A stretch of 64,000 bases of DNA from a virus. A program made the position numbers and the translations under genes. Under the pieces are notes generated by a model. That model did not search any database. It saw only the letters and a list, made by a program, of their open reading frames with translations, and had not been told where the DNA came from. Positions within the stretch are counted from its first letter, which is position 1; the number at the start of each line of letters is the position of its first letter. Shown piece by piece: positions 4,935 through 64,000 of the stretch. The stretch is taken from IMG/VR virus record IMGVR_UViG_3300030060_008394, positions 11,594-75,593 of that record, one strand, 5' to 3'.

Positions 4935-4935
4935 G

Positions 4936-12501: not shown

Positions 12502-12848
12502 ATGTAAGTTTAGAAAAAGTAACAGATTTTTTAAAGCCATTTTTACTACAAGATATAGTAATAAGAACAGATAAAAAAATATTAAAACGAGGTAAGCTTA
12601 AAATTTTTCAAATTAAGCAATATTATATAAATTTAACTCTAGAGTTTAATGACTCAGTTAAATCTTATGAAATACCATATCCGTTTAAAATGTACCATGA
12701 AGAGGATAGAGGTATCTTAAATTATCATTTAAGCTCCTTTATACCTCAATCACAAATAACTATGGTAAAGTTTTTAGATAGTTCCTCAAAATCAAAGCTT
12801 TACGACAATCTTGTATATATATTGCCTTCTGAAAAAGCTATAGTATAA
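12498..12848 (+). CDS. Hypothetical protein
   Basis: 116-aa ORF, ATGA-coupled to the upstream gene. Confidence 0.6.
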   Translation: MNVSLEKVTDFLKPFLLQDIVIRTDKKILKRGKLKIFQIKQYYINLTLEFNDSVKSYEIPYPFKMYHEEDRGILNYHLSSFIPQSQITMVKFLDSSSKSKLYDNLVYILPSEKAIV

Positions 12849-12849
12849 T
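12822..12849 (+). promoter_or_regulatory. Sigma70-like promoter TTGCCT-N16-TATAAT
   Basis: TTGCCT 12822-12827, TATAAT 12844-12849, 5 nt before GTG 12855. Confidence 0.55.
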
Positions 12850-12854
12850 AAAGT

Positions 12855-14486: not shown

Positions 14487-14503
14487 TAAATATATAAGTA
14501 CGC

Positions 14504-15718: not shown

Positions 15719-15728
15719 ATATATATAA

Positions 15729-17543: not shown

Positions 17544-17884
17544 CGAGCAGGATTGCTACTAAAAAACTGAGTTCTATAATAAACCATACCGGCGCCTGCA
17601 GCATATGCAGAGACTTGATTAACGTTAGTTAAGCCTCTAAAAGTAAAGGTATCGTTATTGGCAAGTAACAGCCCATGGTCATCTTTGGAAAATTTTTGAT
17701 CGGTTATTGTTAAGTTACCACCGGTTTTATTTACTATAATAACTTCTGAGCAAGGTTGACCGGCTCCATTTTCATCTCCGGATAAACAGGTTAAAGTTGT
17801 AGCTGCAAGGTACATATTAAATGTTCTACATTGATTTATATTGTAATATGTACTTCCCGCATTAGATGTTGGTGTTGTCGCCAT
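17540..17884 (-). CDS. Hypothetical small late protein (possibly structural)
   Basis: 114-aa ORF with TAAATA (17890-17895, minus) 5 nt before its ATG; convergent with the portal gene. Confidence 0.65.
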   Translation of the reverse strand: MATTPTSNAGSTYYNINQCRTFNMYLAATTLTCLSGDENGAGQPCSEVIIVNKTGGNLTITDQKFSKDDHGLLLANNDTFTFRGLTNVNQVSAYAAGAGMVYYRTQFFSSNPAR

Positions 17885-17889
17885 ATATT

Positions 17890-17909
17890 TATTTATGCCT
17901 GAATAAATA
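17890..17909. promoter_or_regulatory. Back-to-back TAAATA late boxes
   Basis: Minus box 17890-17895 (start 17884) and plus box 17904-17909 (start 17915), each 5 nt from its ATG. Confidence 0.7.
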
Positions 17910-17914
17910 ATTTT

Positions 17915-33025: not shown

Positions 33026-36000
33026 TTTATATATATATTTAATTACATTTTGCGAATCATCGCCTTAACTAAGTGTGAATCTCCTGCACCAGCTTCCATA
33101 GATTGAGCTATAACAGAGCCATAAATAGGATTACGCGTTTTTCTACCGTGTCCCGGTTTATCGGATGTAGTTATATAATCACCAATCTTTATGTCTCCAG
33201 TAACTAGAACAGGCTCTGCACCTAAAACTATTGGCTGACATACACCATTCTGCGTTACTCCAAATACTTTTTTATCGTTTTCTCTTGTTGATTGTATTAA
33301 GTCTCCACATTCACCTATAACAACAAGTGTGCCAGTTGGGTAGCAGGCTAATGTGGCATTAGCGGCTTTTTCCTCAAAATAACCACCAGCTATAACACAA
33401 GCAAAATAACCATTACCTGAAGCACTTACACCGCCTCCTACTGTAAGTCTTTCATTTGGTGTGAGAACACAGCCTGTATTATCGTTGCCTATACCAACAA
33501 AACCGCATGCACAACTATCAGTACCTATAGTCATTCTAGGTGTTGTACCAGATACATCTATCTTGATATTACAATCACCTATAACTAGATTGTCAGAACT
33601 ATCCATCTTAACCGCATCAATTACACCGCCACTGGCAGTTTCTGTTTGATATCTTCGGTTATTATCAATTCTTATATCTCCTCCGGCTACATGTAGTAGT
33701 GACTGTGGAGCGCATGTACCAATACCAACACATCCAGTTGCGTCGATACGCATTTTTTCATTAGAATCACCGACATTAGGTGTTTGAAATCTTATTGTAG
33801 TAGCACCTACTGCAAAATTTGTAGAGCCAGCATTAATCTCCATTCGAGATGTCCGGCCTGCAGAAGCACCTGACCCCCAAGCATTTATCCAAGCACTATA
33901 TTCTGAATTTTGTAGTTCAATAGTTGGACCCGTGGTATCATATTTTTGAATATGTAAATTATAGGCTGGTCTATTTGTACCTATACCAACTTTACAACCA
34001 AAGTAACTATTCATTTCAGTAGCACTAAGACCACCACAAGCGCTTATGTTACCAGCTACAGTTAACTGCGTACTACTTTGACAAGCTATGCTGTTACCAA
34101 TTGTATCTGTATCAGACCAAACTGGTAAGAAACAAGCTGTACCGGTACCATCAACGTTACCTGAACTCGTAGCAAAGATGTCTGCTAGATCACGACCAGC
34201 TGAAACAAAACCATTATGTGTAGAGCTTGCAGAAACTCCACGAGTTACAGATGCGCCCCGTGTAACTGTAAGTGCGCGTACGCTAGCATCACCATCAACA
34301 TTTAAATCATTTGTAGCGCATATACTACCAGATGTTTTCGACCCGGTATTTGTTGTTTCAAACTTTTTAGAACCGCCATAGTATAATTCTACACTATTAG
34401 ACTGATTCATGTTTGCTAATAAGTTTCCAACAGCATCTTTAAATATTATATCATTACCACCGCAAATGTATAAATCCCCAGTGCCAGTTTCGTTAATATA
34501 AGAATTTGAACCGTCATGATATAATTTTAAGTCTTCAGAATTACCTAACGTTATACAAGTACTGTCGGGTACTCGAATTGCATCAGCCGCGCTGAGAACC
34601 CCACAAGCGCTTATGTTACCAGCTACAGTTAGAGTTTCATTAGGGACTTCTGTACCGATGCCAAGTTTGCCATCAGCTTGAAGGTTTAAAACTGTACCGC
34701 TTGAATTTTTAGCTTTAAGAATGTCTCTACTATCTGAAGTTGTGGCAGTTTCCAAAAGCAAAACACTTCCAGTAGATGTCGTTCTTATTCTAGCGGTTGG
34801 GGTAACACTACTGTTAGCACCTTGAATACAAAAAGTCTGTTGATCTACACTAGAGTAAATATCGAGACTGGTTTCTGGTCTACATGTACCAATACCAACC
34901 TTACAAGCAAAATAACCAACACCTTTGGTAGCACTAAGACCACCACAAGCACTTATGTTACCTGCTACAGTAAGCTTTTGTTCAGGACCAGCAGTACCAA
35001 TACCAACACAACCGCCATTGTGTGCTAAACAAGTATCACCAGCATCATCTATTTCCAATCTAGTATATTGCGTACCGCCTTCACTTGCGGCTTCTTGTAA
35101 TAAAAACCTTCCACTGGAATCAATACCTTGTTGCCATATTTGCCCTGTTCCTGTTCTTGAAAGTCTAAAGGTTGGTGAACTACTATTAGATACATGTAAT
35201 TGAGCATTTGGAGTTGTTACTCCGACTCCAACACTACAACCAAAGTAACTATTCATTTCAGTAGCACTAAGACCACCGCATGCGCTTATATTACCAGCAA
35301 CAGTAAGTTTTTCATTAGGTGTTGCTGTACCGATACCGACCTTACCCGTATCTCTAGGAATTATTATAACCGGATTATCATCTGACAACGTTGTATTATT
35401 ATCAGCATGAACCCCTAATATTAAATTGTTATCAGCACCGTCATATTGAACATAACCACCCAGCCAGTTTGAACTTCCTTCAATAAGACGAAGTTTTGAT
35501 CCCTCATCATCATTTCCATTACTCTGAATAGCTAATGTGGCTGCACCAGATTGACATATATGAAGGGGGTACTGAGGAGAATTTTCACCTATACCAACAT
35601 ACCCATTACCATCGATGGTCATTTTTCTACCAGCTGATACACCGAACGCCATCTTGTTCTCGGAATGCCTATATTGTACATAACCGACATATGAACCGGT
35701 CCCCGACGTTGCATCAGCAAAATATAAATTAGCATTGTTATTATCTTCAGCAAAGATTGTTATACCTTGTCCTCCTGACCCACTACCAACAACTAGTGAG
35801 TTACCATCGCTACCAAAAGTGCCCGGTCTATTATTACCAATACCTACACTACAAGCAAAATAACTTGGCATTTGTGTAGCACTAAGACCACCACAAGCGC
35901 TTATGTTACCTGCTACAGTAAGTTTTTCATTAGGTGTTATATTGCCAATACCAACACCAGTTTCATCTATTCTAACTCTATTAGTTCCAGTGCCTCCACC

Positions 36001-39000
36001 AGAAGCATCTGTATTTAAGTAAATGTCATTAGCTGCAGCTGCAACTAAATTTTCACCAGAAGATGATATAATAGTGAGATTATCAAAAGAATCATCTCCA
36101 ATAAAATGACCATCACCTAAAGTTAAATTACCGTCTAAACTTACTCCATCATTTACTGCAGAAAGGGGACTATCACCGATTGTATCTGTATCATTCCATT
36201 GTGGTATCTTGAACTTTGTACCGGTACCATCAACGTTACCTGAACTTGTTGCAAAGATGTCTGCTAAGTCTCTACCAGCTGAAACAAAACCATTGCGTGT
36301 GTTACAGGCGCTTAAACCTCCTACAATATCTACACCCGATGCATCTGTACGAAAACGCGTTATGTTATTGTGATACAAATTAACAGCCCCGTCCTCAAAG
36401 GCAGTCATCATTGTCTCGCCATTGTTTGCTGATTTTAATCTATACGCATTTGTACTAACTATTAAATCACCTGTCCCGCTTTCGTCTCGAATGTAAGAAT
36501 TAGAACCATCATGATATAATTTTAAATCTTGTGAATTACCTAATGTTATACATGTACTGTCGGGTACTCGAATTGCATCTGCTGCACTAAGAACCCCACA
36601 AGCACTTATGTTACCTGCTACAGTAAGTTTTTCATTTGGTGCTGCTGTACCTATACCAACATTACCATCACTACTTCCTGTACCACCACGGATTGTCATC
36701 GCAACATTATCCGCCGGCGCAAATTGAATTAAGTTTAAGTCAGTTGAACTTTGATATTGCGTAGATAAAACAAGGGAGTTTTGAGCAGTTTGGTCGAATA
36801 CAATTTTAGCTGTTTGTGTACCACCATCAGCATCTTCAAGAAGTATCTGTGTTGGATCACCAGAAGCATCTTTAATATGTAAATCAGCAGTAGGGGTACT
36901 AATACCAATACCAACTTTACAAGCAAAGTAACTATTCATTTTAGTAGCACTAAGACCGCCGCAAGCGCTTACATTACCTGCTACAGTTAGTTTCTCGTTT
37001 GGTGCTGTATTACCGATACCAACATTACCACCCTTGCAAACATAGAACATGTTGTCGCCGGCTCCTACACTACCACCAGTGTCTATTCTATAATCTCCGC
37101 CTGTAGTAGCTCCTGTCGAAATACAATCACTACCTTGCTGAAAGCGAATTTGTCCTTGATTACTTGACCCGCCAATTGTTACTAACTGAGTACCATTTCT
37201 ATGAAACTGCGATAAAGTACCACCAGCAGCATTAACATGTAGTGGTGCTTCTGGTCTACATGTACCTATACCAACCTTACAATCAAAGTAACTATTCATT
37301 TGTGTAGCACTAAGACCGCCGCAAGCGCTTATGTTACCAGCTACAGTTAACTGTGTACTAGTTTGACAAACTATACTGTTACCAATTGTATCTGTATCAG
37401 ACCAAACTGGTAAGAAACAAGCTATACCAGAGCCATCAACGTTACCTGAGCTTGTTGCAAATATATCTGCTAAGTCACGACCAGCAGAAACAAATCCTCG
37501 ACTTGTGCTGGATGCATTTACATTAGTACCGCTTATAGAGGTGCCTAGTATCGATCCACGAGCACTTAGATTACCACTACAGGTAAGGACGGCTGATTTC
37601 TTCCATCCACTTTCAAACGTACAAAAATTATAATCTCCAGGAAAGCAGAAATTTACATCTGTCCCAGCCGCGGCTGTTGACCTTAAGGTCGTCTCACCTG
37701 TGGTGTCAAACACCACAGTTGGTGCTGTTCCCTTAATACAGACCGAGTCGTTATATACAGTAAGCTCCGTGCCGGTACGTTCACAAAGTGAAATACCACC
37801 TGTATACCTTGAATGTATACAACTACTATAAGGAAACTCAATTTTTGCGCCTGTCGCGCTACCGCTCCCACCATTAAGTAACTTTATAAGAGTAGGAGCA
37901 GTGTTATCTTGTTCACTTCCTGCTGTAAGTCCTCCTACTATAGTAGCTCCTCCACAAGCGCTTACGTTACCTGCTACGGTCACCGTGTTAGTACCACCAC
38001 TCAACAAACTATTCGTTAGAGTGTCTGTATCTGACCATTGCGCTATATAATTTGCTGTACCAGACCCATCAACACTACTCGCGCATGTTTCAAATATATC
38101 TGCTAAGTCGCGACCACCTGATATAAAACCTCCATAAGAACTATTACAAACAGCAACACGCTCTGCACTAAGAGTGCCTGTTGCGCTTATGTTACCAGCT
38201 ACAGTAAGTTTCTCGTTTGGTGTAGTATTACCTATACCAAAATTACCCGCGGGTGTGATTGAAGCGCGGTATGTCGTATTTGTATCATCATATATACCAA
38301 AACTACCATCATTATTAATAATTGAAAAATCAGAATCGTTATTTGTATCTTGTAAAAATATTCTAGGATATGTACTTGTTAATTTTAAATTACCAGCAAC
38401 TGTGAGTTCTTGATCAGGTCTACATGTACCAATACCAACTTTACAAGCAAAGTAACCAACACCTTTAGTAGCACTAAGACCACCACAAGCGCTTACGTTA
38501 CCTGATACAGTAAGCTTTTGACCTGGTGCAGTATTACCGATTCCAACTTTACCAGATGAAGGCATTAACACATCATATGTTAACTGATTAACTCTGAATA
38601 GATCAGTACCGTTTCCAGCCTCTACTCTCAATCCATCGTAGTTACCACTAGCACCACCGCCACAAATTACAACTAGATCTCTATCAATTGTCTTAAGAGC
38701 TGATACTTGCAAGTATGATGTAGGCCAGTTTGTATTAATTCCGACATTACAAGCAAAATAACTCGGCATTTGTGTAGCACTAAGACCACCACAAGCGCTT
38801 ACGTTACCCGCTACAGTTAGTTTTTGACCTGGTGTAGTTGTACCTATACCTACACAACCACTATTTAGGATAGCCATTCTGGTCTGCAGAGTGCCACCGC
38901 TACAAGTATCAAAGAAAATATCACTGCTGTTGTTATTAGCTCCATATATATGGGTATCAGTAGTGCTATCCATTCCTATGATATCAAAAGGAAGTGATCC

Positions 39001-39759
39001 TCCATAATAGCCCCTTAATGCTTTGCCTTGTGGAATTAAAATATTACCGTCGACGTGCAGTGTTTCGGCTGGTCTACATGTACCAATACCAACTTTACAA
39101 TCAAAGTAACTATTCATTTGTGTAGCACTAAGACCGCCGCAAGCGCTTACATTACCTGCTACAGTTAACTGTGTACTAGTTTGACAAGCTATACTATTTT
39201 CAATAGTATTAGAATCAGAAAAAACAGGTAAATAATTAGCAGTACCAGAGCCGTCAATATTTCCGGATGATGTAGCAAATATATCTGCTAAGTCTCTACC
39301 GCCTGATATAAATCCACCGTAAGAACTATTACAAACAGCAACACGTTCTGCACTAAGAGTGCCTGTTGCGCTTATATTACCTGATACAGTTAGCTCTTCA
39401 TTTGGTACTGATATACCGTTGATTCCCACTTTATTTGTATTTGCATCAGTCTTGAATAGCGGGTTACCTTCATTAGCACCGGTACCCTTAATAATAATAT
39501 CTACATTATTACCACCATCATTGAATGTAATATCGTGTGGCTGAGCACCAGCATCGTTTAAATCTATATATGATATACCACCAATATTAAATCTAAGTCT
39601 ATCATTTGTAAGATTAATATATGTGTTAGGATCACCATTATGATAAATGTATTGGTCAACACCTATATCTCCCGCAACATCCAGTGTATAATCTGGCGTG
39701 TTTGTACCAATACCGACATTACAACCAAAGTAACTATTCATTTCAGTAGCACTAAGACC
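29744..39759. repeat. Dispersed intragenic repeats shared by both fibre genes
   Basis: 13 exact copies of AGCACTAAGACC at 29744, 30323, 31457, 34021, 34930, 35263, 35878, 36946, 37306, 38470, 38776, 39124, 39748; identical 48-bp blocks at 34091-34138 and 37376-37423 inside ~200-bp near-duplicates. Confidence 0.9.
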
Positions 39760-41301
39760 ACCGCAAGCGCTTACATTACCTGCTACAGTTAACTGTGTAC
39801 TAGTTTGACAAGCTATGCTATTAGTAAGTGTATTACTGTCAGACCATGAGGGTAAGAAGTTAGCAGTTCCGGAACCATCAACGTTACCAGAAGTCGTTAC
39901 AAAGATGTCTGCTAGGTCTCTCCCAGCGGAAACAATACCTCCATTAGTGGAGTTAGCACTAATAGAGCAAGCTTGAACTGTATTACAAGCGCTTATGTTA
40001 CCTGCTACAGTAAGCTTTTCATTTGGTGTTCTAGTTCCTATACCAACCTTATCAGTTCCGGCATCTGTGTATAACAAGCCATTATCTGTGGTTCCTTCTA
40101 CTCTAAAGTCTACATCCGCGCCAGCTTCATTAAAAGTAATTTCACTTGCAGTATCTTGAGTAATATCTATAAAATTAACACCACCGGCTTGGATATTAAT
40201 ATCATCTTCAGTAAAATAAATGAAAGTATCATCATCACCGTTATGAATAAGACATGCCCCAATACCAACACTACCAGCTACATCGAGCATATAATCCGGT
40301 CTATTTGTATTAATACCAAGCCTTCCCTCCAAGTAATTATAACCATTTTTACCTGAAGCGCTAAGATTACCATTAGAGCTTATGTTACCAGATACAGTAA
40401 GTGCTTCTTCGGGTAAAGCGTTATTATTAGAACCTATAAAGACTTTAGTACCATTACCAAATACTGCTCTATTACCGGTATCATAATCTAACAATAACAT
40501 TTGATTACCATCTGCAACTATTCTAAATGAATCCGCCGCGTGTGATTCAATCCAAGTTGCATGATCATTTTCAAAATATATTCTTTGATCTTCATCTAAA
40601 AATATATCACCTCTTGGATTAACGTTATAACCACTAAGATTACCAGCTGCACTTACATTACCTGATATAGTTGCATTACCAGCTGCACTTAGGTTACTAG
40701 TCGCACTTAAGCTACCATCTATAGTAAATTGCGAGCCAGCCTCTCGTGCTATACTATCAGTTAACTGTGTTGTTCCAGACCATTTTGTTATTCGGCCTGC
40801 TGTTCCAGTTCCACAAACACTACCAGAAGAAGCAGTAGTTGCAAATATATCTGCTAAATCACGACCACCAGATATAAAACCACCATATGATGTATTACAA
40901 ACAGCAACACGTAATGCGCTAAGATTATTTGTTGCGCTTACCTTACCTGATACTGTTAGCTTTTCATTTGGATCTTTAGTATTAATTCCTAAGTTTCCAG
41001 TATCAGCAAAGTATATTACACCACCCTCTTGATCAACAAATTCTGCAATTGGTTGACTAGCTCCCTTTTGTCTTACATATAACGCTGGTCCTGTACCATT
41101 ATTAATAACGGATAAAGCAGAGGTTGACGTTACAATAGTCTTCGTAAATATAGCAGATGATGCTTCAAACTCTGTTGCAGTTAATTTATCAAACGTCGCA
41201 TTAGTCCCGGTAAGTGCGTTCAAGTAAGCATTACCACCCACAGACAAATCCTGCGTGATAGTTGCACCATTCTTTACCTTAAAATCTTTATTTAGCGCCA
41301 T
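33043..41301 (-). CDS. Giant repeat-built tail fibre protein (2752 aa) with C-terminal chaperone/autocleavage-like domain
   Basis: Seven GRDLADIF modules, many VAGNISACGGLSAT..SYF.C.VGIG repeats; C-terminal V.VTGDIKIGDYITTSDKPGHG resembles the peptidase G2/IMC domain. Confidence 0.8.
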   Translation of the reverse strand: MALNKDFKVKNGATITQDLSVGGNAYLNALTGTNATFDKLTATEFEASSAIFTKTIVTSTSALSVINNGTGPALYVRQKGASQPIAEFVDQEGGVIYFADTGNLGINTKDPNEKLTVSGKVSATNNLSALRVAVCNTSYGGFISGGRDLADIFATTASSGSVCGTGTAGRITKWSGTTQLTDSIAREAGSQFTIDGSLSATSNLSAAGNATISGNVSAAGNLSGYNVNPRGDIFLDEDQRIYFENDHATWIESHAADSFRIVADGNQMLLLDYDTGNRAVFGNGTKVFIGSNNNALPEEALTVSGNISSNGNLSASGKNGYNYLEGRLGINTNRPDYMLDVAGSVGIGACLIHNGDDDTFIYFTEDDINIQAGGVNFIDITQDTASEITFNEAGADVDFRVEGTTDNGLLYTDAGTDKVGIGTRTPNEKLTVAGNISACNTVQACSISANSTNGGIVSAGRDLADIFVTTSGNVDGSGTANFLPSWSDSNTLTNSIACQTSTQLTVAGNVSACGGLSATEMNSYFGCNVGIGTNTPDYTLDVAGDIGVDQYIYHNGDPNTYINLTNDRLRFNIGGISYIDLNDAGAQPHDITFNDGGNNVDIIIKGTGANEGNPLFKTDANTNKVGINGISVPNEELTVSGNISATGTLSAERVAVCNSSYGGFISGGRDLADIFATSSGNIDGSGTANYLPVFSDSNTIENSIACQTSTQLTVAGNVSACGGLSATQMNSYFDCKVGIGTCRPAETLHVDGNILIPQGKALRGYYGGSLPFDIIGMDSTTDTHIYGANNNSSDIFFDTCSGGTLQTRMAILNSGCVGIGTTTPGQKLTVAGNVSACGGLSATQMPSYFACNVGINTNWPTSYLQVSALKTIDRDLVVICGGGASGNYDGLRVEAGNGTDLFRVNQLTYDVLMPSSGKVGIGNTAPGQKLTVSGNVSACGGLSATKGVGYFACKVGIGTCRPDQELTVAGNLKLTSTYPRIFLQDTNNDSDFSIINNDGSFGIYDDTNTTYRASITPAGNFGIGNTTPNEKLTVAGNISATGTLSAERVAVCNSSYGGFISGGRDLADIFETCASSVDGSGTANYIAQWSDTDTLTNSLLSGGTNTVTVAGNVSACGGATIVGGLTAGSEQDNTAPTLIKLLNGGSGSATGAKIEFPYSSCIHSRYTGGISLCERTGTELTVYNDSVCIKGTAPTVVFDTTGETTLRSTAAAGTDVNFCFPGDYNFCTFESGWKKSAVLTCSGNLSARGSILGTSISGTNVNASSTSRGFVSAGRDLADIFATSSGNVDGSGIACFLPVWSDTDTIGNSIVCQTSTQLTVAGNISACGGLSATQMNSYFDCKVGIGTCRPEAPLHVNAAGGTLSQFHRNGTQLVTIGGSSNQGQIRFQQGSDCISTGATTGGDYRIDTGGSVGAGDNMFYVCKGGNVGIGNTAPNEKLTVAGNVSACGGLSATKMNSYFACKVGIGISTPTADLHIKDASGDPTQILLEDADGGTQTAKIVFDQTAQNSLVLSTQYQSSTDLNLIQFAPADNVAMTIRGGTGSSDGNVGIGTAAPNEKLTVAGNISACGVLSAADAIRVPDSTCITLGNSQDLKLYHDGSNSYIRDESGTGDLIVSTNAYRLKSANNGETMMTAFEDGAVNLYHNNITRFRTDASGVDIVGGLSACNTRNGFVSAGRDLADIFATSSGNVDGTGTKFKIPQWNDTDTIGDSPLSAVNDGVSLDGNLTLGDGHFIGDDSFDNLTIISSSGENLVAAAANDIYLNTDASGGGTGTNRVRIDETGVGIGNITPNEKLTVAGNISACGGLSATQMPSYFACSVGIGNNRPGTFGSDGNSLVVGSGSGGQGITIFAEDNNNANLYFADATSGTGSYVGYVQYRHSENKMAFGVSAGRKMTIDGNGYVGIGENSPQYPLHICQSGAATLAIQSNGNDDEGSKLRLIEGSSNWLGGYVQYDGADNNLILGVHADNNTTLSDDNPVIIIPRDTGKVGIGTATPNEKLTVAGNISACGGLSATEMNSYFGCSVGVGVTTPNAQLHVSNSSSPTFRLSRTGTGQIWQQGIDSSGRFLLQEAASEGGTQYTRLEIDDAGDTCLAHNGGCVGIGTAGPEQKLTVAGNISACGGLSATKGVGYFACKVGIGTCRPETSLDIYSSVDQQTFCIQGANSSVTPTARIRTTSTGSVLLLETATTSDSRDILKAKNSSGTVLNLQADGKLGIGTEVPNETLTVAGNISACGVLSAADAIRVPDSTCITLGNSEDLKLYHDGSNSYINETGTGDLYICGGNDIIFKDAVGNLLANMNQSNSVELYYGGSKKFETTNTGSKTSGSICATNDLNVDGDASVRALTVTRGASVTRGVSASSTHNGFVSAGRDLADIFATSSGNVDGTGTACFLPVWSDTDTIGNSIACQSSTQLTVAGNISACGGLSATEMNSYFGCKVGIGTNRPAYNLHIQKYDTTGPTIELQNSEYSAWINAWGSGASAGRTSRMEINAGSTNFAVGATTIRFQTPNVGDSNEKMRIDATGCVGIGTCAPQSLLHVAGGDIRIDNNRRYQTETASGGVIDAVKMDSSDNLVIGDCNIKIDVSGTTPRMTIGTDSCACGFVGIGNDNTGCVLTPNERLTVGGGVSASGNGYFACVIAGGYFEEKAANATLACYPTGTLVVIGECGDLIQSTRENDKKVFGVTQNGVCQPIVLGAEPVLVTGDIKIGDYITTSDKPGHGRKTRNPIYGSVIAQSMEAGAGDSHLVKAMIRKM

Positions 41302-44358: not shown

Positions 44359-44915
44359 ACCTTATTATATAAATGTTCCTTTAGAAAACTATCCCACGTT
44401 TTTAGAGAGGTAGCTCTTAGTGCATCAAACATTTCAAATAACGTTGTTATGTTAGCAGATGATACTTCAGATTCGGTAGCTATCTCTCCAGCATCCACCT
44501 CTTCGACAACTTTATGTACAACGCTGCCTACAGTATCGTACTTATGAATATTTTTCCATGCTTTATATTGTGGATTATGTCCTTTTAGCTCAGGGTATTT
44601 AGTTATAAGACCAGGATGGCCGTTGTAAATATTATATTTCGTGCATTTATCTGGAGGTATAATTCTCAACCACCCGTTTAAAGTAATTAAGGTATTTTCT
44701 GGATCATCAACAACCTCATCTAATATATCTAACGTTGTATATTCTTCACTCGTAGTTAACCATCGATATTCTACTCCATCAACATAATTCTCAATTAAAC
44801 CCGAGTTATTATTCGAAATAATAAGATCAGGTACTCTATCTACTCGTTTTGTTATATCAATAATTTCTCGACCCGTCTGAGAAAATAAGGCAATCCAATT
44901 TTTAAACTTCATCAT
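44355..44915 (-). CDS. PurN-like formyltransferase, candidate dPreQ1 formyltransferase (DpdN-like)
   Basis: GWLRII, IYNGHPGL, GSVVHKV.EEVDAGEI (N, H, D catalytic pattern); same operon as queF. Confidence 0.75.
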   Translation of the reverse strand: MMKFKNWIALFSQTGREIIDITKRVDRVPDLIISNNNSGLIENYVDGVEYRWLTTSEEYTTLDILDEVVDDPENTLITLNGWLRIIPPDKCTKYNIYNGHPGLITKYPELKGHNPQYKAWKNIHKYDTVGSVVHKVVEEVDAGEIATESEVSSANITTLFEMFDALRATSLKTWDSFLKEHLYNKV

Positions 44916-45295
44916 AGATATGATAATGCCGTCCAGTTAATAAGCAAGTGTATAGTATTGTCACACGCTACTAGGAGCCAGATAGATAACCATTGTGGTA
45001 CATCTTTATGGTAGCCGGTTTCTCTACAATCGTCCCACGCGTTTCTATATTTTTTAGGCTGGAGGACAATATTACGCGCATATACAACATATCTGGCTAG
45101 CCTAAATCTATCAATAAAGAAATGAGTTATACAAATTACTGAAAAAGCTGCTAATGATGGCTCCAGGATAAGAAATGGCAACGAATATGTAATCGCATGC
45201 GCTGCAGCTGCTTTACTACATTTCGTCTTATTGAGTGCCATCCAATCGCTCTGAAGGAGATAGTCACCAATTAAATGGAGTATCAGTTGGAGCAT
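44912..45295 (-). CDS. DUF3307-like membrane protein
   Basis: HLIGDYLLQSDWMA.NK, THFFIDR, DNTIH. Confidence 0.7.
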   Translation of the reverse strand: MLQLILHLIGDYLLQSDWMALNKTKCSKAAAAHAITYSLPFLILEPSLAAFSVICITHFFIDRFRLARYVVYARNIVLQPKKYRNAWDDCRETGYHKDVPQWLSIWLLVACDNTIHLLINWTALSYL

Positions 45296-45302
45296 TATTT
45301 AT

Positions 45303-45345
45303 ATTTTATATCCAAATCCCTATTTTTCAAGTGTTATAATAAATA
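45303..45345. promoter_or_regulatory. Divergent promoter pair: minus TTGAAA-N16-TAAAAT and plus TAAATA
   Basis: Minus -35 at 45325-45330, -10 at 45303-45308 (7 nt to ATG 45295); plus TAAATA 45340-45345, 5 nt to GTG 45351. Confidence 0.6.
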
Positions 45346-45350
45346 ATTTT

Positions 45351-45632
45351 GTGGAAGATTTTTTAAAACTGGTTACTGATGTGGGATTTCCTATAGCTGG
45401 CGCTATTGTATGTGGTACTTTTGTATTTATTATTCTAAAATTTATACTTAGTGAGATAACAGGTGCAGTAAAAGGGCTTGGCGGAATGATAAAATCATTA
45501 GAAAATAGAGTACAAACTATGAATAATGATATTGTTAAGATTGATACATTAGTTTCGTATGCCTTTAACAAGCATCCGAACTTAGATAGATTAGCAGCAA
45601 ACGAAGGGAAGGAGGATGCGAGAAAAGACTAA
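45351..45632 (+). CDS. Small membrane protein A (one TM plus coiled coil)
   Basis: VGFPIAGAIVCGTFVFIILKFIL followed by heptad-like LENRVQTMNNDIVKID. Confidence 0.7.
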   Translation: MEDFLKLVTDVGFPIAGAIVCGTFVFIILKFILSEITGAVKGLGGMIKSLENRVQTMNNDIVKIDTLVSYAFNKHPNLDRLAANEGKEDARKD

Positions 45633-45931
45633 TGGGTGATGAATTAGTACAGGCAATTAATGATTTTGGATTTCCTATTATAGCAGCTTTCGGTTTAGGA
45701 TATTTTGTGTATTATACTTGGAACTGGGTTGTAAAAGAAATAAAACCAGTATTAGATGAATCTACCGGTACATTAATAGGTCTTATCGATAGGATAAGAA
45801 TGTTAGATAACGATATGATCAGACTTAACACAAAAATACAGATGATTCTCCAAGAAAAGGAACAAAAGGAGCAAGAAGAGAGGAAAGAAAATAAAAAAAG
45901 AAATAAACGTATTTTGGATACTAAGCTCTAG
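45632..45931 (+). CDS. Small membrane protein B, paralogue of A
   Basis: FGFPIIAAFGLGYFVYY followed by LIDRIRMLDNDMIRLN; TAATG-coupled to A. Confidence 0.7.
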   Translation: MGDELVQAINDFGFPIIAAFGLGYFVYYTWNWVVKEIKPVLDESTGTLIGLIDRIRMLDNDMIRLNTKIQMILQEKEQKEQEERKENKKRNKRILDTKL

Positions 45932-45961
45932 CATTATATATTAATAGGGGTAAATATGGTT

Positions 45962-46432
45962 ATGAAGTATTTTTGGTTATTATTACTTTTCTGTAGTAGT
46001 GCCTTAGCTGACGAATTAAAGTTTAGGTTTAAATCGCCTTCTTTTAATGGTGTTGGCTATAGCGCGCATAAAATAAATCTAGAGAATATTTCAGCAGCTA
46101 GGAAAAAAATTATTAAGGATGAAATAAAATCTTTAGAAATTCAAGCAAACTTAGCTGCGCAGAGAACGCCTCTGAATGTCTTTATGACTAACTTACAGTC
46201 ACGAATATATTCAGAGCTTTCGAAGCAAGTAACAGAGCAGCTATTTGCCGACACAGGCTCCGATTCAGGGTCATTCGACTTAGATGGTAATACTATTTCA
46301 TGGTATAGATTAGCTGATCAAATTAACTTAACAGTTGCAGATACTGACGGTGATCTAACTACTATCTTAATTCCGATTGGATCGCTCCTCTTACCCGAGC
46401 CTTTGACTAATGAACAAACTTCTACTGAATAG
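45962..46432 (+). CDS. csgF: Curli assembly component CsgF-like
   Basis: Signal peptide, then ELKFRFKSPSFNG and F..NLQSRI..ELS; start moved to ATG 45962 (TAAATA 45951-45956, 5 nt upstream). Confidence 0.75.
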   Translation: MKYFWLLLLFCSSALADELKFRFKSPSFNGVGYSAHKINLENISAARKKIIKDEIKSLEIQANLAAQRTPLNVFMTNLQSRIYSELSKQVTEQLFADTGSDSGSFDLDGNTISWYRLADQINLTVADTDGDLTTILIPIGSLLLPEPLTNEQTSTE

Positions 46433-47297
46433 CCTTATAGGCATTACATTTCTCTTAAGTGGTTGTGCAAGTTTTCAAGATACTGGATCTAATAAACCGC
46501 CTACTGTTGCACCTACTCCTTTATTTGAAAGGCTAAGTAAAATTCCAGAATTAGATGGTGAGCCTATCTACGTAGGTGTTAATAGTTTTAAGGATCTAAC
46601 AGGTGCTAGAAAATCAGTAGATAATTATGCTAGTTTTTCCTCTGCAGTAACCCAAGGTGGAGAAGCCTGGTTAATCGAATCGTTATTAGACTCGAATGGG
46701 TGGTTTAAAGTTTTGGAAAGAGGTGAGCTAGATACGGTAATGAGAGAAAGAGCTCTAGTACAACAAACTAGAGAAGATTTTACAGATGATGATGACACGG
46801 GATTGAAACCTTTATTATTTGCCGGATTACTTATACATGGAGGAATTATTAGTTATGATACAAATGAGGTTTCCGGGGGTATTGGAGCTGCTTACTTAGG
46901 TATTGGAGCTCATGAACAACATAGGAAGGATGTTGTAACTGTTTCTTTAAGATTTGTAAGTACATTAACAAGTGAGATACTTTTATCTTCTACTGTATCA
47001 AAGACTATCTATTCAACAGCTGTAGGCTCAGATGTTTTTAAATTTGTAAATGATGCTCTAGATCCACTAGAAATTGAAATTGGTTTCGCGAAAAATGAAC
47101 TCGTATCAGTAGCAACTAGAGCAGCAATAGACTTAGCTATTATTGAGCTTATTGAAAAAGGCGAAAAGAAAAAAATGTGGAAATTTAAAAAACAACCTAA
47201 AAAAGAAAAACCATCACCAGATCCTCAGCCAAAAAAGGAAAAAACAACCACTAATTCAAAGAAAGATAAGTCTATATTAAGTGGAATAAAAAGGTAG
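46410..47297 (+). CDS. csgG: Curli secretion channel CsgG-like lipoprotein
   Basis: Lipobox LSGC, FKDLTG.RK, FS.AVTQG, WFKVLER..LD.VMRER.L, GGIISYD, DVVTVSLR. Confidence 0.9.
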   Translation: MNKLLLNSLIGITFLLSGCASFQDTGSNKPPTVAPTPLFERLSKIPELDGEPIYVGVNSFKDLTGARKSVDNYASFSSAVTQGGEAWLIESLLDSNGWFKVLERGELDTVMRERALVQQTREDFTDDDDTGLKPLLFAGLLIHGGIISYDTNEVSGGIGAAYLGIGAHEQHRKDVVTVSLRFVSTLTSEILLSSTVSKTIYSTAVGSDVFKFVNDALDPLEIEIGFAKNELVSVATRAAIDLAIIELIEKGEKKKMWKFKKQPKKEKPSPDPQPKKEKTTTNSKKDKSILSGIKR

Positions 47298-47316
47298 ATT
47301 TTACATAAATATTTTT

Positions 47317-48105
47317 ATGAATATAAAATCTATTTTAACAGCTCTGTTACTATCGACAGGTTTACTATTTTCTTCTAATGAGATTTACTTAGATCAAATA
47401 GGAAGTGCTGGTGTTTTTAACATTTCGCAGATAGGGTCAGCTAACAAGTTAGGTGAAGGTACAAATCGCTCGCGTGTTGAAGGTGAGGAAGTAGTATTTA
47501 ACGTAGCTACTATTGGTAATGAAAACCTGGTTGATATTGATTCAATCGGTAACGAAGAAGAGGTAAATCTTCAAGTTGAAGGTGATGCTAATGAATTTAT
47601 TCTAGCATTAGAAGGTGATCAAAATACTGTAAATGCATTTGTTGCAGGTGATTCTAATAATATTCTTATTGCTGGCAATCAAGAAGATACACAAAAAGCT
47701 ACTGTTAATAATGGTTTAATAAATTTAAATGTTGAAGGGTCAACTAACGATATTGAGTTATTATTGTTTGATACATCATATACGTTTACAGATTATTTTA
47801 TTGGTGGTTCTTTAAACACAATTAGCTCTTATCAAGAAGGTCACGGAGGGCTAATTGGTCACTCCCAACTAGTTGATGTTTTCGGAAGTAGTAATAATTT
47901 ATTGATATCTCAAGTAGGTTCTGAAAGTCAGTTTATTGAACTTTCAATTCTTGGAAATGAAAACAACTACCAAATATTCCAAACCGATGGCGGCTTTGAC
48001 CCAACATTCATGCCTGAGCAAATTGGTAACGGGGTTACACCAGTTAATGATTTCTCCAATCCAGATGGTCCTCCGCAAGGTGGCCCTGGTGGTATTAATC
48101 CTTAA
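47317..48105 (+). CDS. Curlin-like (CsgA/CsgB-type) acidic repeat protein
   Basis: Signal peptide, then NEIYLDQIG and repeated (Q/V/I)xGxxN..I units; TAAATA 47306-47311. Confidence 0.7.
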   Translation: MNIKSILTALLLSTGLLFSSNEIYLDQIGSAGVFNISQIGSANKLGEGTNRSRVEGEEVVFNVATIGNENLVDIDSIGNEEEVNLQVEGDANEFILALEGDQNTVNAFVAGDSNNILIAGNQEDTQKATVNNGLINLNVEGSTNDIELLLFDTSYTFTDYFIGGSLNTISSYQEGHGGLIGHSQLVDVFGSSNNLLISQVGSESQFIELSILGNENNYQIFQTDGGFDPTFMPEQIGNGVTPVNDFSNPDGPPQGGPGGINP

Positions 48106-48982
48106 TATATTATCTGTTTCGGTTTATGCGGAAATAGGAAATGTAACATCACAGACTAAAGCAGCTAGAATTACCAGAAAGGGTGATAAAATTTTAACTG
48201 AAGTTAATACTCCAGTTGAAATGAGAGATCTAATAGAGACTCTAAAAGGTAGAACAAATATTAAATTTGTTGATGATACTAAAGTAAGTGTTACTGAGTA
48301 CTCTAAACTTCTAATTGATGAGTTTGTTTATAACCCAGAAAAGAAAACCGGTAAACTCTCTCTTAAAGCCGCACTTGGTACTATTAGATACTCTTCAGGA
48401 AAAATAGCAAAAAATTCTAGACAAAATGTAAAAATAAAATCTCCAACTGCTTCTGTATCTGTAAGAGGTACTGACTTTACGATGAATGTTCAAGAAGATG
48501 GTGCGAGTAGTTTTTTATTGTTACCATCAACAGACGATGCCGGTAAATCATATGTAGGTTCTATAGATGTATCAACTCTCGGGGGTACTGTAACGTTAAA
48601 CAAAGCGTATGAAGCTACTACAGTAACATCAGCAATTGCAGCTCCTACACCACCACAAGTTATAAAGCAAGACGGACCTGCAGTTAAAAAAGAAAAAAAG
48701 GATAAAGACGACTTAGAAAAGGATAATAATGCTGAAGATAACAATGATAAACAAAAGTTAGAAGATATAGAAATAAAGAGAAAAGAAAAACAAATAATGA
48801 ATACATTCTTAAAGATGGATGATGGTAGATATGTTTTCTTTTCGAAAGATAAAGATAATTTGATATCTTTAATAGTAGAAGATGGTGCTAACGTTACTGT
48901 AAATTATGATAACAGTGGTAGTATTATTAATGCAAAAATGAATTCCGGTAATAATGTTCTTTTTAATATAAAACAACAATGA
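48065..48982 (+). CDS. Exported FecR-domain protein
   Basis: Signal peptide MVLRKVALVVLILNILSVSVYA; F.DDTKVSVTEYSKL.IDEFVY, IKSPTASVSVRGTDF; start moved to ATG 48065. Confidence 0.8.
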   Translation: MVLRKVALVVLILNILSVSVYAEIGNVTSQTKAARITRKGDKILTEVNTPVEMRDLIETLKGRTNIKFVDDTKVSVTEYSKLLIDEFVYNPEKKTGKLSLKAALGTIRYSSGKIAKNSRQNVKIKSPTASVSVRGTDFTMNVQEDGASSFLLLPSTDDAGKSYVGSIDVSTLGGTVTLNKAYEATTVTSAIAAPTPPQVIKQDGPAVKKEKKDKDDLEKDNNAEDNNDKQKLEDIEIKRKEKQIMNTFLKMDDGRYVFFSKDKDNLISLIVEDGANVTVNYDNSGSIINAKMNSGNNVLFNIKQQ

Positions 48983-51036
48983 AATTTTTTAACATAAATG
49001 CTTACGCTATTTGTTTAGTAATTACCACAGCTATGGTACTACTAAGAATTTTTGATCCTTTTTTTGTAGAAACTGCTCGTCTTAAAGGTATTGATTACTA
49101 TCAAAACAAACAAGAAAAGGTAATATCTGAAAATATAGCTATAGTAGAAATAGATGAAAATAGTCTAGATGAATATGGTCAATGGCCTTGGGATAGAAGA
49201 TTAATTGCTAGTGGTATAACTAAAGCTTTCGAAAGTGGAGCTCAATTAGTAGTTGTACCTATATTATTTGCAGAAAAAGATAGACTTGGCGGCGACGAAG
49301 ATCTAGTAAATTTATTAAGCGAGGCTCCAGTTATTATAGGTCAATCAGCCAGTACAAAAGGGAAAGGAGAACCTGTCCCAAGAGGTCTAGCTACTATAGG
49401 AGAACCATTAGGGGATTGGCTTTATGATTATCCTGAAGCTATAGGACCTGTAAAGGAGTTGGGTGAAGTAGCTGCTGGTGTAGGTATGATATTAACGGCA
49501 CCAGAGTTAGATGGAGTTGTAAGAAGAATGCCATTAGTTATACAAATTAAAGGAGAAGCATACCCTACAATACCTTTAGAAGTTATAAGATTATTTTCCG
49601 GTGAGCAATCTTATCAAGCTAAAGTTGGATTAGGTGGCGTTGAAGCTATAAGAGTACCAGGATTTGATCCTATAACTACAGATGAAAATTCTAGAGTTTG
49701 GCTTAATTTTAAATATAATTTTAATAAAGTATCTTTTAACGAAGCTGATTGGTCAGTAGTAAAAGATAAAATTGCTGTTATAGGATTAACAGGGGAAGGT
49801 TTAGCTAATACAGTAGCTACACCAACAGGTATAAGTTATGGTCATGAAATAACTAGTCAAGCTCTACAAATGTTAATTGATGAGTCAAGATTACAAAGAC
49901 CTACAGAATCGACTATATTAGAAGTAATTATTACAGCATCATTCTGCTCCCTTCTTATCATTGGGGCTCTTTGGTTATCCTATAAGTTTAGCTTAGTATT
50001 AATACTTGCATCTTTAGCCGCAGGACCGTTTATCGGTAACATGTTATATGATAAGAATGGTTGGTTAATTGATTATACTTGGCCTTTTGCTTGTATATTT
50101 GTTACCTGGGCGTGTGCAACCTTTATTAGATTTATAAACGAAAGTAAATCTAAACTACAAATAAAGAAACAGTTTGAACATTATCTCGCTCCTCCTATAG
50201 TTAAATTACTACAAAAAGATCCTTCGTTATTAAAGTTGGGAGGAGACACCAGAGAGTTGTCTATACTGTTTAGTGATTTAAGAGGCTTCACTTCTATAAG
50301 CGAGCACTTTAAAACTAACCCTCAAGGATTAACAGAATTAGTTAACAGATATTTAACTCCTATGACAGGGTGTGTTATAGACCATAATGGTACAGTAGAT
50401 AAATTTATTGGTGATGCATTAATGGCTTTTTGGAATGCTCCTTTAGATGTTAAAGATCATAGAGAAAAGGCTATACACTGTGGTAGAAAAATGTTTCATT
50501 TATTAGCTAAACTTAATAATGAAGTTATGAGTGAAGGGTTAGAAGAACTTAAAATAGGTGTTGGTATTAATACAGGTGATGTTGTTGTAGGTAATATGGG
50601 ATCTGATCAACGGTTTGATTACACTTGTCTAGGAGATGCTGTAAACTTATCTTCAAGATTAGAAGGACAAACAAAAGAATATAGAGTAGGTATTATTGTA
50701 GGAGAAGAAACTACAAAAGGTATTGAAGAGAGATTTAACTTTGTAGAACTAGATAAAATAGCAGTAAAAGGTAAAAAAGAAGGAGTTAGAATATTTACAA
50801 TTTTAGATGATACCTCGCGATGCGCGAATGGAGGAGACGTTAAACACCATGACACGTTTTTATCTTTCTATAGAAAACAACATTGGAACAGAGCTCTTAA
50901 AATGATTGATTTAAACCAAATTACATATCCTGAGTTAAAGGGATATTATGAAATGATGAGAGAAAGAATAGAAACTCTCAAAGTTAATAGACCTGGTAAA
51001 GGTTGGGATACAATTTATAGAGCTACTTCGAAATAA
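48979..51036 (+). CDS. CHASE2-domain membrane adenylate cyclase (class III)
   Basis: IVEIDENSL..YGQWPWDR, ELDGVVRR, three TM helices, LFSDLRGFT, VDKFIGDA, DYTCLGDAVNLSSRLE. Confidence 0.93.
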   Translation: MKFFNINAYAICLVITTAMVLLRIFDPFFVETARLKGIDYYQNKQEKVISENIAIVEIDENSLDEYGQWPWDRRLIASGITKAFESGAQLVVVPILFAEKDRLGGDEDLVNLLSEAPVIIGQSASTKGKGEPVPRGLATIGEPLGDWLYDYPEAIGPVKELGEVAAGVGMILTAPELDGVVRRMPLVIQIKGEAYPTIPLEVIRLFSGEQSYQAKVGLGGVEAIRVPGFDPITTDENSRVWLNFKYNFNKVSFNEADWSVVKDKIAVIGLTGEGLANTVATPTGISYGHEITSQALQMLIDESRLQRPTESTILEVIITASFCSLLIIGALWLSYKFSLVLILASLAAGPFIGNMLYDKNGWLIDYTWPFACIFVTWACATFIRFINESKSKLQIKKQFEHYLAPPIVKLLQKDPSLLKLGGDTRELSILFSDLRGFTSISEHFKTNPQGLTELVNRYLTPMTGCVIDHNGTVDKFIGDALMAFWNAPLDVKDHREKAIHCGRKMFHLLAKLNNEVMSEGLEELKIGVGINTGDVVVGNMGSDQRFDYTCLGDAVNLSSRLEGQTKEYRVGIIVGEETTKGIEERFNFVELDKIAVKGKKEGVRIFTILDDTSRCANGGDVKHHDTFLSFYRKQHWNRALKMIDLNQITYPELKGYYEMMRERIETLKVNRPGKGWDTIYRATSK

Positions 51037-62697: not shown

Positions 62698-64000
62698 ATG
62701 GTTAAAACTATAACAATTTTTTTATGTCTACTTTGCTCTAATATTTTAGCAAATCAAACTGTTGATCATAGTAAAGAGATAGATAGAATTATTGCTAATG
62801 ATTTAAGGAATAAAAGAATAGAATTACCTGTTGTTGTTAACCCTTATATATTTGTTAGAAGAGCATATATTGATATCGCTGGTAGAATACCAACGTATGA
62901 AGAATGGAAGTCGTTTATAAAAAGACCAGATCGTAAAAAATTAATTAACGATCTACAAAACTCTAAAGGTTATACAGAGAGTATGTTTAACTTTTATGCT
63001 GATCTTCTTAGAATAAAGAGACGCCTTTCTAATAATATAGACGGTGATACTTATATCTCTTGGGTCAGACAAGAGATAGAAAACAATACTCCATATGACG
63101 AGTTTATTAAAAAGATTTTAACAGCACAGGGTAACATATGGGAAAATCCAGAAGTTGGATATTTCTTAAGAGATGAAGGAATGTTACTTGATAATGTAAG
63201 TAATACATTTCAAGCTTTTGCAGGTATGAATATTAGTTGTGCTCAATGTCATGATCATCCATTTGATGATTGGACACAGATGGATTACTATAACATGACA
63301 GCATTTTTTACTCAGTTAAATACAAGAGGTGATAAGGAAGATAGAAAAGAATTTCAACGATTAAGAAAAGAAGCAGAAGAGTTAGACAAATCCGGAAAGC
63401 AAAAAGGTTCAACAAATAGGATAGGACAATTTTATAGACATGGTTATCAACATACAATAGTACAGGATCAAGATAAAAAATTAAAGCTTCCAGATGATTA
63501 TAAGTATAGAGATGCTGAACCTGGAGAAGTAGTAAAAGCTGAAACTGCTGTAGGGGATAGAGTTAAAGAGAAGCGCAAAAGAGAAGGGTTAAGAGATAGT
63601 TTCGCAAATTGGTTAGCTAATGATACACATCCAACATTTGCTGCTAATATTGTAAACCGGTTATGGGATAGATCGTTTGGCTTTCCATTGATAGATAATT
63701 TAAATGAAGTAGCTTTGTTTGATGAAATAAAGGATGGTCGTAACACTCGATTAATAGAATACTTAGTAAGGGTTATGAAAGAAGTTGATTATGATTTAAA
63801 GAAGTTTAATAATATTTTATATAACACTAAGTTCTATCAAGCTAAAATTGATCCTGATAACGAGTTTAAAGGGCCTGTTTTAAGGAGAATGACAAGTGCA
63901 CAATTGTGGGATTCTATAGTAACACTTTATCAAGGTGACCCGGACATGTGGCAGCCCAAGGATAGAAAGCAGGATTATATAGATCTCTTTACTGGACTAC
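62698..64000 (+). CDS. DUF1549/DUF1553-like exported CxxCH protein (3'-truncated, absent from the ORF track)
   Basis: Own translation: signal peptide MVKTITIFLCLLCSNILA, FVRRAYIDIAGRIPT, WVRQEIENNTPYDEF, CAQCHDHPFDDWTQ.DYY..AFF, FAANIVNRLW, RRMTSAQLWDSI; TATAAATA 5 nt before ATG. Confidence 0.85.
   Translation, partial: MVKTITIFLCLLCSNILANQTVDHSKEIDRIIANDLRNKRIELPVVVNPYIFVRRAYIDIAGRIPTYEEWKSFIKRPDRKKLINDLQNSKGYTESMFNFYADLLRIKRRLSNNIDGDTYISWVRQEIENNTPYDEFIKKILTAQGNIWENPEVGYFLRDEGMLLDNVSNTFQAFAGMNISCAQCHDHPFDDWTQMDYYNMTAFFTQLNTRGDKEDRKEFQRLRKEAEELDKSGKQKGSTNRIGQFYRHGYQHTIVQDQDKKLKLPDDYKYRDAEPGEVVKAETAVGDRVKEKRKREGLRDSFANWLANDTHPTFAANIVNRLWDRSFGFPLIDNLNEVALFDEIKDGRNTRLIEYLVRVMKEVDYDLKKFNNILYNTKFYQAKIDPDNEFKGPVLRRMTSAQLWDSIVTLYQGDPDMWQPKDRKQDYIDLFTGL

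Follow-up and report, generated by a model that had tools for sequence, protein, structure and literature searches.

A stretch of 64,000 nucleotides (the window) from the IMG/VR virus record IMGVR_UViG_3300030060_008394, covering positions 11,594 to 75,593 of that record, holds seven tightly packed plus-strand genes (window 45351-51036). These code for two small membrane proteins, CsgF, CsgG, a curlin-like protein, a FecR-domain protein and a CHASE2 adenylate cyclase (Table 1). The block almost certainly represents the viral type VIII secretion system (T8SS), or curli, module known from the literature, here carried by a divergent T4-like marine myovirus. What our comparison adds concerns the last two genes: judged by sequence, the pair of FecR-domain protein and CHASE2 cyclase appears to derive from alphaproteobacterial loci that encode adhesins exported by a type I secretion system (T1SS).

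We propose the following mechanism for the module, and put the probability of the whole of it (export route, FecR link, cyclase sensor and exchange of T1SS for T8SS) at about 0.5. The block would be transcribed together with the structural genes of the phage. The CsgG lipoprotein would build an outer-membrane channel capped by CsgF, and the Sec-exported curlin-like solenoid would pass through this channel and build a fibre or coat at the surface of the infected cell. The periplasmic FecR protein would link the export route to the CHASE2 domain of the inner-membrane cyclase, which would turn the state of the envelope or the fibre into cytoplasmic cyclic AMP (cAMP). The FecR-cyclase pair would have been inherited from alphaproteobacterial loci in which the same cyclase stands with a T1SS and a giant FecR adhesin. 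The phage would have swapped the export part, from T1SS and RTX/cadherin adhesin to T8SS and curlin, and retained the sensor. We couple the parts in this way because the genes are so tightly packed and because those for FecR and the cyclase share a 4-nt ATGA overlap.

Conservation of the module among phages

Wittmers et al. (2022; PMC9599517) described a conserved unit in podo- and myoviruses of the pelagiphages that consists of a histidine kinase (HK), CsgF, CsgG, CsgA/B, FecR, a second CsgA/B and an adenylate cyclase. FecR and the cyclase, which are outside bacterial curli operons, were termed 'putatively regulatory'. The module turned up at every one of the 65 GOV2 stations and also in metatranscriptomes, was estimated at ~0.1% of assembled viral proteins, and was inferred to be of alphaproteobacterial origin; T1SS, RTX and HlyD are unmentioned in that paper. 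Zaragoza-Solas (2020) had reported csgF/csgG together with unknown genes and put forward the idea of 'sibling capture', and Buchholz et al. (2022; PMC9004378) suggested a pore that times lysis. The seven-gene combination singled out by the initial annotation of this stretch is no novelty: the same set, FecR and cyclase included, has been published (PMC9599517).

The module is annotated in identical order in the Pelagibacter phage HTVC008M (KC465899) and the Methylophilales phage Melnitz (MZ577097), at ~40% (39-45%) amino-acid identity to the window. These phages also share with the window the lack of CsgE, CsgC and CsgD in the module, and their cyclases belong to the same viral clade. They differ in having a second curlin gene between FecR and cyclase, which the clade of the window is without. 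The FecR protein of the window is shorter (305 aa), with an immunoglobulin (Ig)-like C-terminal domain, and is carried in a more distant T4-like backbone.

All 14 IMG/VR loci retrieved by a search with the CsgG of the window keep the gene order at 50-93% amino-acid identity, one of them being truncated right before FecR. A 236-kb ENA contig (5841-12058) retains CsgF-CsgG-curlin-FecR-cyclase and is missing the small pair. On this contig a gene for a cREC_REC receiver domain lies directly upstream of the module, with genes for an RNA ligase and an ART-PolyVal protein nearby. Taken together, the order is kept in 17 of 17 other phage-type loci, allowing for the one truncation and the one missing small pair, and the genes for FecR and the cyclase adjoin in 17/17 phage-type loci that reach that far. 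The survey thus upholds the view of the initial annotation that pore, fibre, FecR and cyclase belong together.

The viral-type module or its cyclase was also met on contigs of metagenome-assembled genomes (MAGs) labelled as Bacteroidetes (46.6 kb), Saprospiraceae (3.3 kb) and Rhizobiaceae (2.2 kb). These are probably mis-binned phage contigs and therefore provide no reliable host evidence.

Bacterial relatives of the cyclase lie in type I secretion loci

Of the 8,000 candidates scored in a search with the cyclase, more than 7,500 were hits. For comparison we used the 77 closest non-phage-like genome matches, all from Alphaproteobacteria and all matching over the full length at 33-37% identity. 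Within 8 kb of the cyclase homologue, CsgG or CsgF was present in none of these loci (0/77). A T1SS-type ATP-binding cassette (ABC) exporter and/or HlyD was present within the same distance in 39 of the 77, mostly directly adjoining the cyclase, and among loci with full flanks in 26 of 45. An open reading frame (ORF) with a FecR domain was found in at least 22 of the 77 loci. Two points raised by the initial annotation bear on these counts: FecR and CHASE2 do form a bacterial pair, as it recurs in bacterial loci, while the co-occurrence of cyclase and FecR genes with csg genes holds in phages and not among the 77 bacterial loci.

The usual gene orders are FecR giant-ABC-HlyD-cyclase, cyclase-OEP-ABC-HlyD-FecR giant, and FecR giant followed by cyclase. 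Pfam bears this out in cultured isolates: the locus of Afipia birgiae (276-10145) encodes, in this order, a FecR+cadherin protein of 1433 aa, ABC, HlyD and the CHASE2 cyclase, and that of Mesorhizobium sp. KR9-304 (7305-18137) the cyclase, a TolC-like OEP, ABC, HlyD and a protein with FecR plus Big_9/cadherin. The FecR proteins of Bradyrhizobium reach 1,700-1,900 aa, their C-terminal regions being of the cadherin, Big_9, RTX and serralysin kinds. No obvious Sec signal was seen on these giant proteins, and their make-up is that of T1SS adhesins. The position of FecR close to the N terminus of giant cadherin/Big_9/RTX proteins suggests that FecR domains can be N-terminal modules of T1SS adhesins. 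In Bradyrhizobium centrosematis (2748-10178 of the locus) a giant FecR adhesin-like protein is encoded beside T1SS genes and a CHASE2 cyclase.

A further arrangement was seen in five loci from marine single-amplified genomes (SAGs) and MAGs. Here the cyclase gene is abutted or overlapped by that of an HlyD protein with an N-terminal cyclic nucleotide monophosphate (cNMP)-binding domain. Next come one or two small cNMP-binding proteins, and three of the five loci also encode a FecR-RTX protein nearby. In the alphaproteobacterial SAG AG-349-G20 (1670-12460) the order is TolC-like OEP, a 290-aa protein without known function, C39-type ABC exporter, cNMP-HlyD and CHASE2 adenylate cyclase, followed by two small cNMP-binding proteins and DUF1538. 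From its gene content, an operon of this type looks like a cAMP-gated type I secretion system. Our literature search found no paper on such a system and none that pairs CHASE2 with type I secretion. Between the phage FecR protein and the FecR domain of one marine FecR-RTX protein, identity reaches 35% (E 5e-24).

The phage module and these alphaproteobacterial clusters are therefore alike in having a full-length cyclase of the same kind, a FecR domain and an export machine for a repeat-rich surface protein. They differ in that the bacteria export by T1SS (ABC, HlyD, TolC-like OEP) and not by CsgG/CsgF, and in that the bacterial FecR is found towards the N-terminal end of a giant cadherin/RTX protein, whereas the phage FecR is a separate, Sec-exported protein. 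In addition, some of the bacterial clusters carry cNMP-HlyD and small cNMP-binding proteins, which the phages examined are without.

The adenylate cyclase is predicted to be active on ATP

The cyclase has one transmembrane (TM) helix (residues ~6-31), a periplasmic CHASE2 domain, three further TM helices (~310-386) and a cytoplasmic cyclase domain; the Pfam matches span residues 17-327 for CHASE2 and 425-601 for Guanylate_cyc. It matches phrog_35576 over its full length (E 1e-204), so close copies already exist in cultured phage genomes. Alignment to CyaB (3r5g) and Cya2 (2w01) identifies D433 and D479 as the metal-binding aspartates, K475 and T549 as the adenine-specifying pair, and N556 and R560 as the transition-state residues. 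All six are invariant in 20 viral homologues. The initial annotation had read the same complement of residues from the sequence, and the alignment agrees with it in full. The pattern is that of a class IIIb enzyme for ATP, with an active site predicted to be intact.

In the cyclase tree the viral proteins form one clade (SH-like approximate likelihood ratio test, SH-aLRT, 100) on a long branch away from the alphaproteobacterial homologues, which argues for a single acquisition. The tree is unrooted and names no specific bacterial donor.

The FecR-domain protein combines a periplasmic signalling fold with likeness to an adhesin anchor

The start of the FecR gene is uncertain: the ORF opens at 47936 and has ATGs at 48047 and 48065, of which the second is the likely start, as it would give a classic signal peptide. 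The AlphaFold2 (AF2) model (predicted local distance difference test, pLDDT, 85.9) consists of a signal helix, a beta domain modelled with very high confidence (residues 24-200), a disordered linker rich in K, E and D (~205-245) and the Ig-like C-terminal domain (247-304). In fold, the beta domain resembles the cell-surface signalling domain that PupR has in the periplasm (6ovk, Z 15.6), and likewise an anti-sigma factor of Bacteroides (4m0n, Z 14.3).

The signal peptide leads straight into the FecR domain, the cytoplasmic anti-sigma part being absent, and profile searches of the 86-kb record (~40% complete) with STN and Sigma70_r2 found no match. For want of an anti-sigma part, an STN transducer and an extracytoplasmic function (ECF) sigma factor, we regard the protein as a FecR-domain protein and not as a FecR-type regulator, and a circuit of the iron-citrate type as not present.

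Residues 21-115 also superpose on 5ix9, the domain that anchors the Marinomonas ice-binding adhesin MpIBP at the cell surface, with Z 7.6, a root-mean-square deviation of 2.0 A over 73/76 residues and a Foldseek probability of 1.00. This structure has served as template for the periplasmic retention module of LapA (bioRxiv 10.1101/198937). The comparison of the phage protein with a T1SS retention module thus gives a likeness of fold to 5ix9, in a protein that is Sec-exported and is itself no RTX adhesin. The LapA/MpIBP systems and the phage module would both tie a second messenger to the display of a surface adhesin. The phage has neither LapD nor LapG and would use cAMP instead of c-di-GMP, so the likeness is one of fold and logic only.

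The curli components

CsgG shares 35% identity with its E. coli counterpart across 269 aa (E 2e-45). It is a predicted lipoprotein, with the lipobox LSGC read from the sequence and a Lys/Pro-rich C-terminal tail, and would be the outer-membrane channel lipoprotein of the system. The Pfam match of CsgF covers positions 7-132 of the 132-position profile and follows an N-terminal signal peptide. By BLAST its match to E. coli CsgF is marginal (E 0.19), with the N-terminal F-x-F motif aligned. No match to CsgE was found in the 86-kb record (~40% complete). CsgC and CsgD are not encoded in the block, to which the search for these two was confined.

The curlin-like protein has a signal peptide and about nine QxGxxN / GxxN turns. 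The copy in the window has no Pfam match, and Curlin_rpt is matched by 6 of 16 orthologues (best E 8.6e-5); in the alignment the periodic Q.G and G..N columns are invariant, at spacings of 11-30 residues. In its AF2 model (pLDDT 77.8), 17 strands are stacked on one another. In an exhaustive search of 48,161 chains the top structural match was Pontibacter CsgA (8c50, Z 19.1, 197 residues, 24% identity). The family profile, run against PDB sequences, ranked two curlins first, 8c50 at E 0.007 and E. coli CsgA (8enq) at E 0.9, and hhalign gave a probability of 73% for the match to E. coli CsgA. Foldseek of the model against PDB and Swiss-Prot returned only weak rows of beta-helices. We accept the product of 47317-48105 as a curlin-type, putatively amyloid-forming beta-solenoid subunit on repeats and predicted fold.

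With the curli systems of E. coli and Salmonella (CsgBAC, CsgDEFG) the window thus has in common a CsgG lipoprotein channel, CsgF and a subunit with QxGxxN repeats. It differs in having a single curlin gene, no CsgE that we could find and no CsgC or CsgD in the block; in the addition of FecR, the cyclase and the small TM pair; and in forming one operon as opposed to two divergent ones.

The two small proteins are paralogues of 93 and 99 aa, each with a single TM helix at the N terminus, a coiled coil after it and a common GFP(I/V) motif where the helix begins. Sixteen of the 17 other phage-type loci have the pair at the same position, and on this account it belongs to the module. The atlas clusters nearest to the second protein are all viral and one is automatically named 'Holin family'; we call the pair holin-like by that cluster name alone. 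The label 'histidine kinase' given to the pair (PMC9599517) was tried and rejected: no kinase domain was found (Pfam E <=0.1, NCBIfam E <=0.01), and at 93 and 99 aa the proteins are too short to hold HisKA/DHp plus HATPase_c.

Block layout and gene-start boxes

Going along the seven genes, successive neighbours overlap by 1 nt, stand 24 nt apart, overlap by 23 nt, stand 19 nt apart, overlap by ~41 nt and, at the last junction, overlap by the 4-nt ATGA. ORF calls and Pfam agree with the initial annotation in a contiguous and overlapping csgF-csgG-curlin-like-FecR-CHASE2/cyclase series, except that its start for CsgF (45962) is the second ATG and the ORF call begins at 45956. Its statement that all of these products carry export signals also stands: as judged by eye and from a hydropathy scan, signal peptides are present on CsgF, the curlin-like protein and FecR, CsgG has its lipobox and the cyclase its TM helices. 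Every gene of the block except that for the curlin-like repeat protein was assigned to a PHROG family.

Table 1. Genes of the block and associated gene-start boxes (window coordinates).
Feature	Position	Strand	Details
ATAAATA late-type box	45339-45345	+	12 nt before start codon of first small gene
Small membrane protein 1	45351-45632	+	93 aa; phrog_18771 E 5e-28
Small membrane protein 2	45632-45931	+	99 aa; phrog_18771 E 2e-32
CsgF	45956-46432	+	Pfam PF10614 E 7e-17; phrog_35372
CsgG	46410-47297	+	Pfam PF03783 E 9e-47
ATAAATA box 2	47305-47311	+	12 nt before curlin start codon
Curlin-like protein	47317-48105	+	262 aa; repeats, fold
FecR-domain protein	48065-48982	+	305 aa; Pfam PF04773 E 9e-9
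CHASE2 adenylate cyclase	48979-51036	+	685 aa; CHASE2 E 1.5e-37, Guanylate_cyc E 1.9e-21; phrog_35576

The motif ATAAATA, which precedes two genes of the block, is a genuine gene-start motif of this phage: 11 of its 27 copies lie no more than 40 nt upstream of an ORF start, against ~2% expected. At the same distance of 12 nt it precedes genes of the structural region (starts 17915, the gene after portal, and 23091), the copies concerned being those at 17903 and 23079, and the portal and sheath-stabiliser starts have it 14-18 nt ahead of them. Further positions before genes are 14486, 15715, 59002 and 62686. The 12-nt spacing leaves nearly no leader, nor space for a Shine-Dalgarno site.

The canonical T4 late promoter TATAAATA occurs 5 times in the window against 15.7 expected, and is thus rarer than chance; on the plus strand of the block there is none. 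Scans for sigma-70 promoters and terminators gave results at chance level. Of the 'late boxes' under which the initial annotation placed the genes, the ATAAATA copies before gene starts therefore survive, while the canonical form is neither enriched nor present on the plus strand of the block.

A DUF3307 gene (44912-45295, minus strand) stands divergent to the module, and does so at the same position in 14/14 IMG/VR relatives (54-90% identity). Given this orientation, the promoter region 45296-45350 would be common to the module and the queF-type operon.

The phage and its host

The IMG/VR record is 86 kb long and ~40% complete by CheckV; the genomes of its nearest relatives are ~170-200 kb (near relatives 170-197 kb). 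The backbone in the window is that of a T4-like myovirus, with portal, gp23 and sheath-stabiliser genes. Its gp23 is ~33% identical to cyanomyophage gp23, and the phage is distant from Kyanoviridae. By these sequences the carrier of the module belongs to a divergent marine T4-like myovirus lineage. The sequencing runs listed for the block, and for csgG with the curlin gene, were all of marine metagenome DNA and none of RNA. Two giant ORFs (3044 and 2752 aa; window 23891-41301, minus strand) are nearly silent in Pfam, with a BppL_N motif as the sole match, and presumably encode fibre or adhesin proteins.

A tRNA scan of the window found none and so gave no clue to the host. An ORF at 62698-63999, open at the window end, combines PSCyt2 (DUF1549, E 1e-39) and PSD1 (DUF1553, E 2e-12). 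These domains are typical of Planctomycetota and Verrucomicrobiota. The initial annotation had named a phage probably infecting the Planctomycetes-Verrucomicrobia-Chlamydiae (PVC) group; PVC would be no more than a possible host group, as that one gene is the sole hint and the module's nearest carriers in culture are phages of SAR11 and OM43.

Weighing the proposed mechanism

In the proposed mechanism FecR acts as periplasmic partner of CHASE2, and we infer that the pair senses the exported fibre or the route that the fibre takes. Several points weigh against this reading. Contacts of FecR with CHASE2, CsgG or the curlin were not predicted here; a complex prediction for FecR 23-305 with CHASE2 28-312 scored 0.00 in a run without controls and gives a verdict neither way. 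The direction of signalling is our inference, and late transcription is a timing that ATAAATA would mark on the strength of the motif and by analogy with T4-like phages. The likeness of FecR to 5ix9 has a middling Z score, and the counts of FecR in bacterial loci come from a profile built on viral sequences, which makes them lower bounds. FecR also occurs in some phage modules without a cyclase (PMC9599517), so that its main partner may be the export apparatus and not the cyclase. Finally, no cNMP-binding domain was found in the 86-kb record (~40% complete), the complete genomes of HTVC008M and Melnitz or three IMG/VR relatives (81-93% complete). Because no phage receptor for cAMP was found, the cAMP probably acts on cNMP-binding proteins of the host.

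An outside-in direction of signalling was the proposal of the initial annotation: a cue such as superinfection or cell contact would act through curlin and pore on FecR, and the resulting cAMP would set lysis timing, exclusion or aggregation. The topology permits it, since the pore would lie in the outer membrane, FecR in the periplasm and the CHASE2 cyclase, its active site intact, in the inner membrane, and the adjoining paralogous TM pair is holin-like by automatic cluster name. There is also a precedent in Sinorhizobium meliloti, where the CHASE2 cyclases CyaD1, CyaD2 and CyaK answer a plant protein signal from outside, perceived through the outer-membrane protein NsrA, by raising cAMP, and where cyaD1 adjoins the gene for a FecR-domain protein, SMc02177. 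That system differs from the phage module in that NsrA is a beta-barrel and not CsgG, and in that its output is the CRP-type regulator Clr. Moreover, SMc02177 is a Clr target that is dispensable for signal perception. In the window no cue, lysis gene or cAMP receptor could be identified, and the bacterial cNMP-HlyD relatives make cAMP look like an input to secretion and not a read-out of the outside. We consider signalling of this kind unlikely.

The module might instead unite two functions that merely travel together, with curli fibres that clump hosts ('sibling capture') or shield them from other phages, a cyclase that separately reprograms host metabolism by way of cAMP, and FecR as a periplasmic adaptor or gate in place of CsgE. 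Consistent with this, CsgE was not found in the record and is absent from all phage modules, in which FecR is constant and the cyclase and second curlin are not (PMC9599517); and cyclases without curli genes do exist in phages, an Acinetobacter phage being an example. Yet the genes for FecR and the cyclase overlap and are neighbours throughout the phage-type loci, and their pairing, being found in bacteria as well, is older than the phage module. Melnitz cultures, moreover, showed no clumping (PMC9004378). Independent functions thus seem improbable to us.

Least well placed is the reading of CsgG/CsgF as a bare pore, whether a gated secretin/pinholin that depolarises or opens the envelope when infection ends (Buchholz et al. 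2022) or an ungated channel for nutrients or iron chelates (Zaragoza-Solas 2020; Wittmers 2022): these are published proposals to which the missing CsgE gate and the small holin-like TM proteins would be suited, but the conserved curlin cargo gene with signal peptide directly after csgG favours export over an empty pore, CsgG as an outer-membrane channel is unable to depolarise the inner membrane, and FecR is without the anti-sigma part, with no STN transducer or ECF sigma factor of iron signalling found in the 86-kb record, which makes this reading very unlikely.

The proposed mechanism, in which the FecR-cyclase pair reports on the export route, can be extended to the bacterial loci. In such a circuit the retained FecR domain of the adhesin would be the ligand of CHASE2, cAMP would feed back through cNMP-HlyD, and the phage cassette would be a copy rewired to T8SS. 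We offer this circuit tentatively, as a possibility that is more doubtful than the mechanism itself.

Implications

The contribution of the window itself is one more, and more divergent, carrier of a module that is very common in ocean viromes. The module is predicted to give hosts without curli genes a whole new envelope organelle together with a second-messenger enzyme.

To our knowledge, the input of CHASE2 domains has been a long-standing unknown. The link to T1SS adhesins and cNMP-HlyD provides a concrete hypothesis for this input that can be addressed in culturable Afipia, Bradyrhizobium and Mesorhizobium, and for the phage module the pairs HTVC008M/SAR11 and Melnitz/OM43 are in culture. 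If the bacterial circuit outlined above is real, CHASE2/FecR pairs in general would report whether a surface fibre is in place, and infected cells would use phage-made cAMP to drive the cNMP-dependent proteins of the host.

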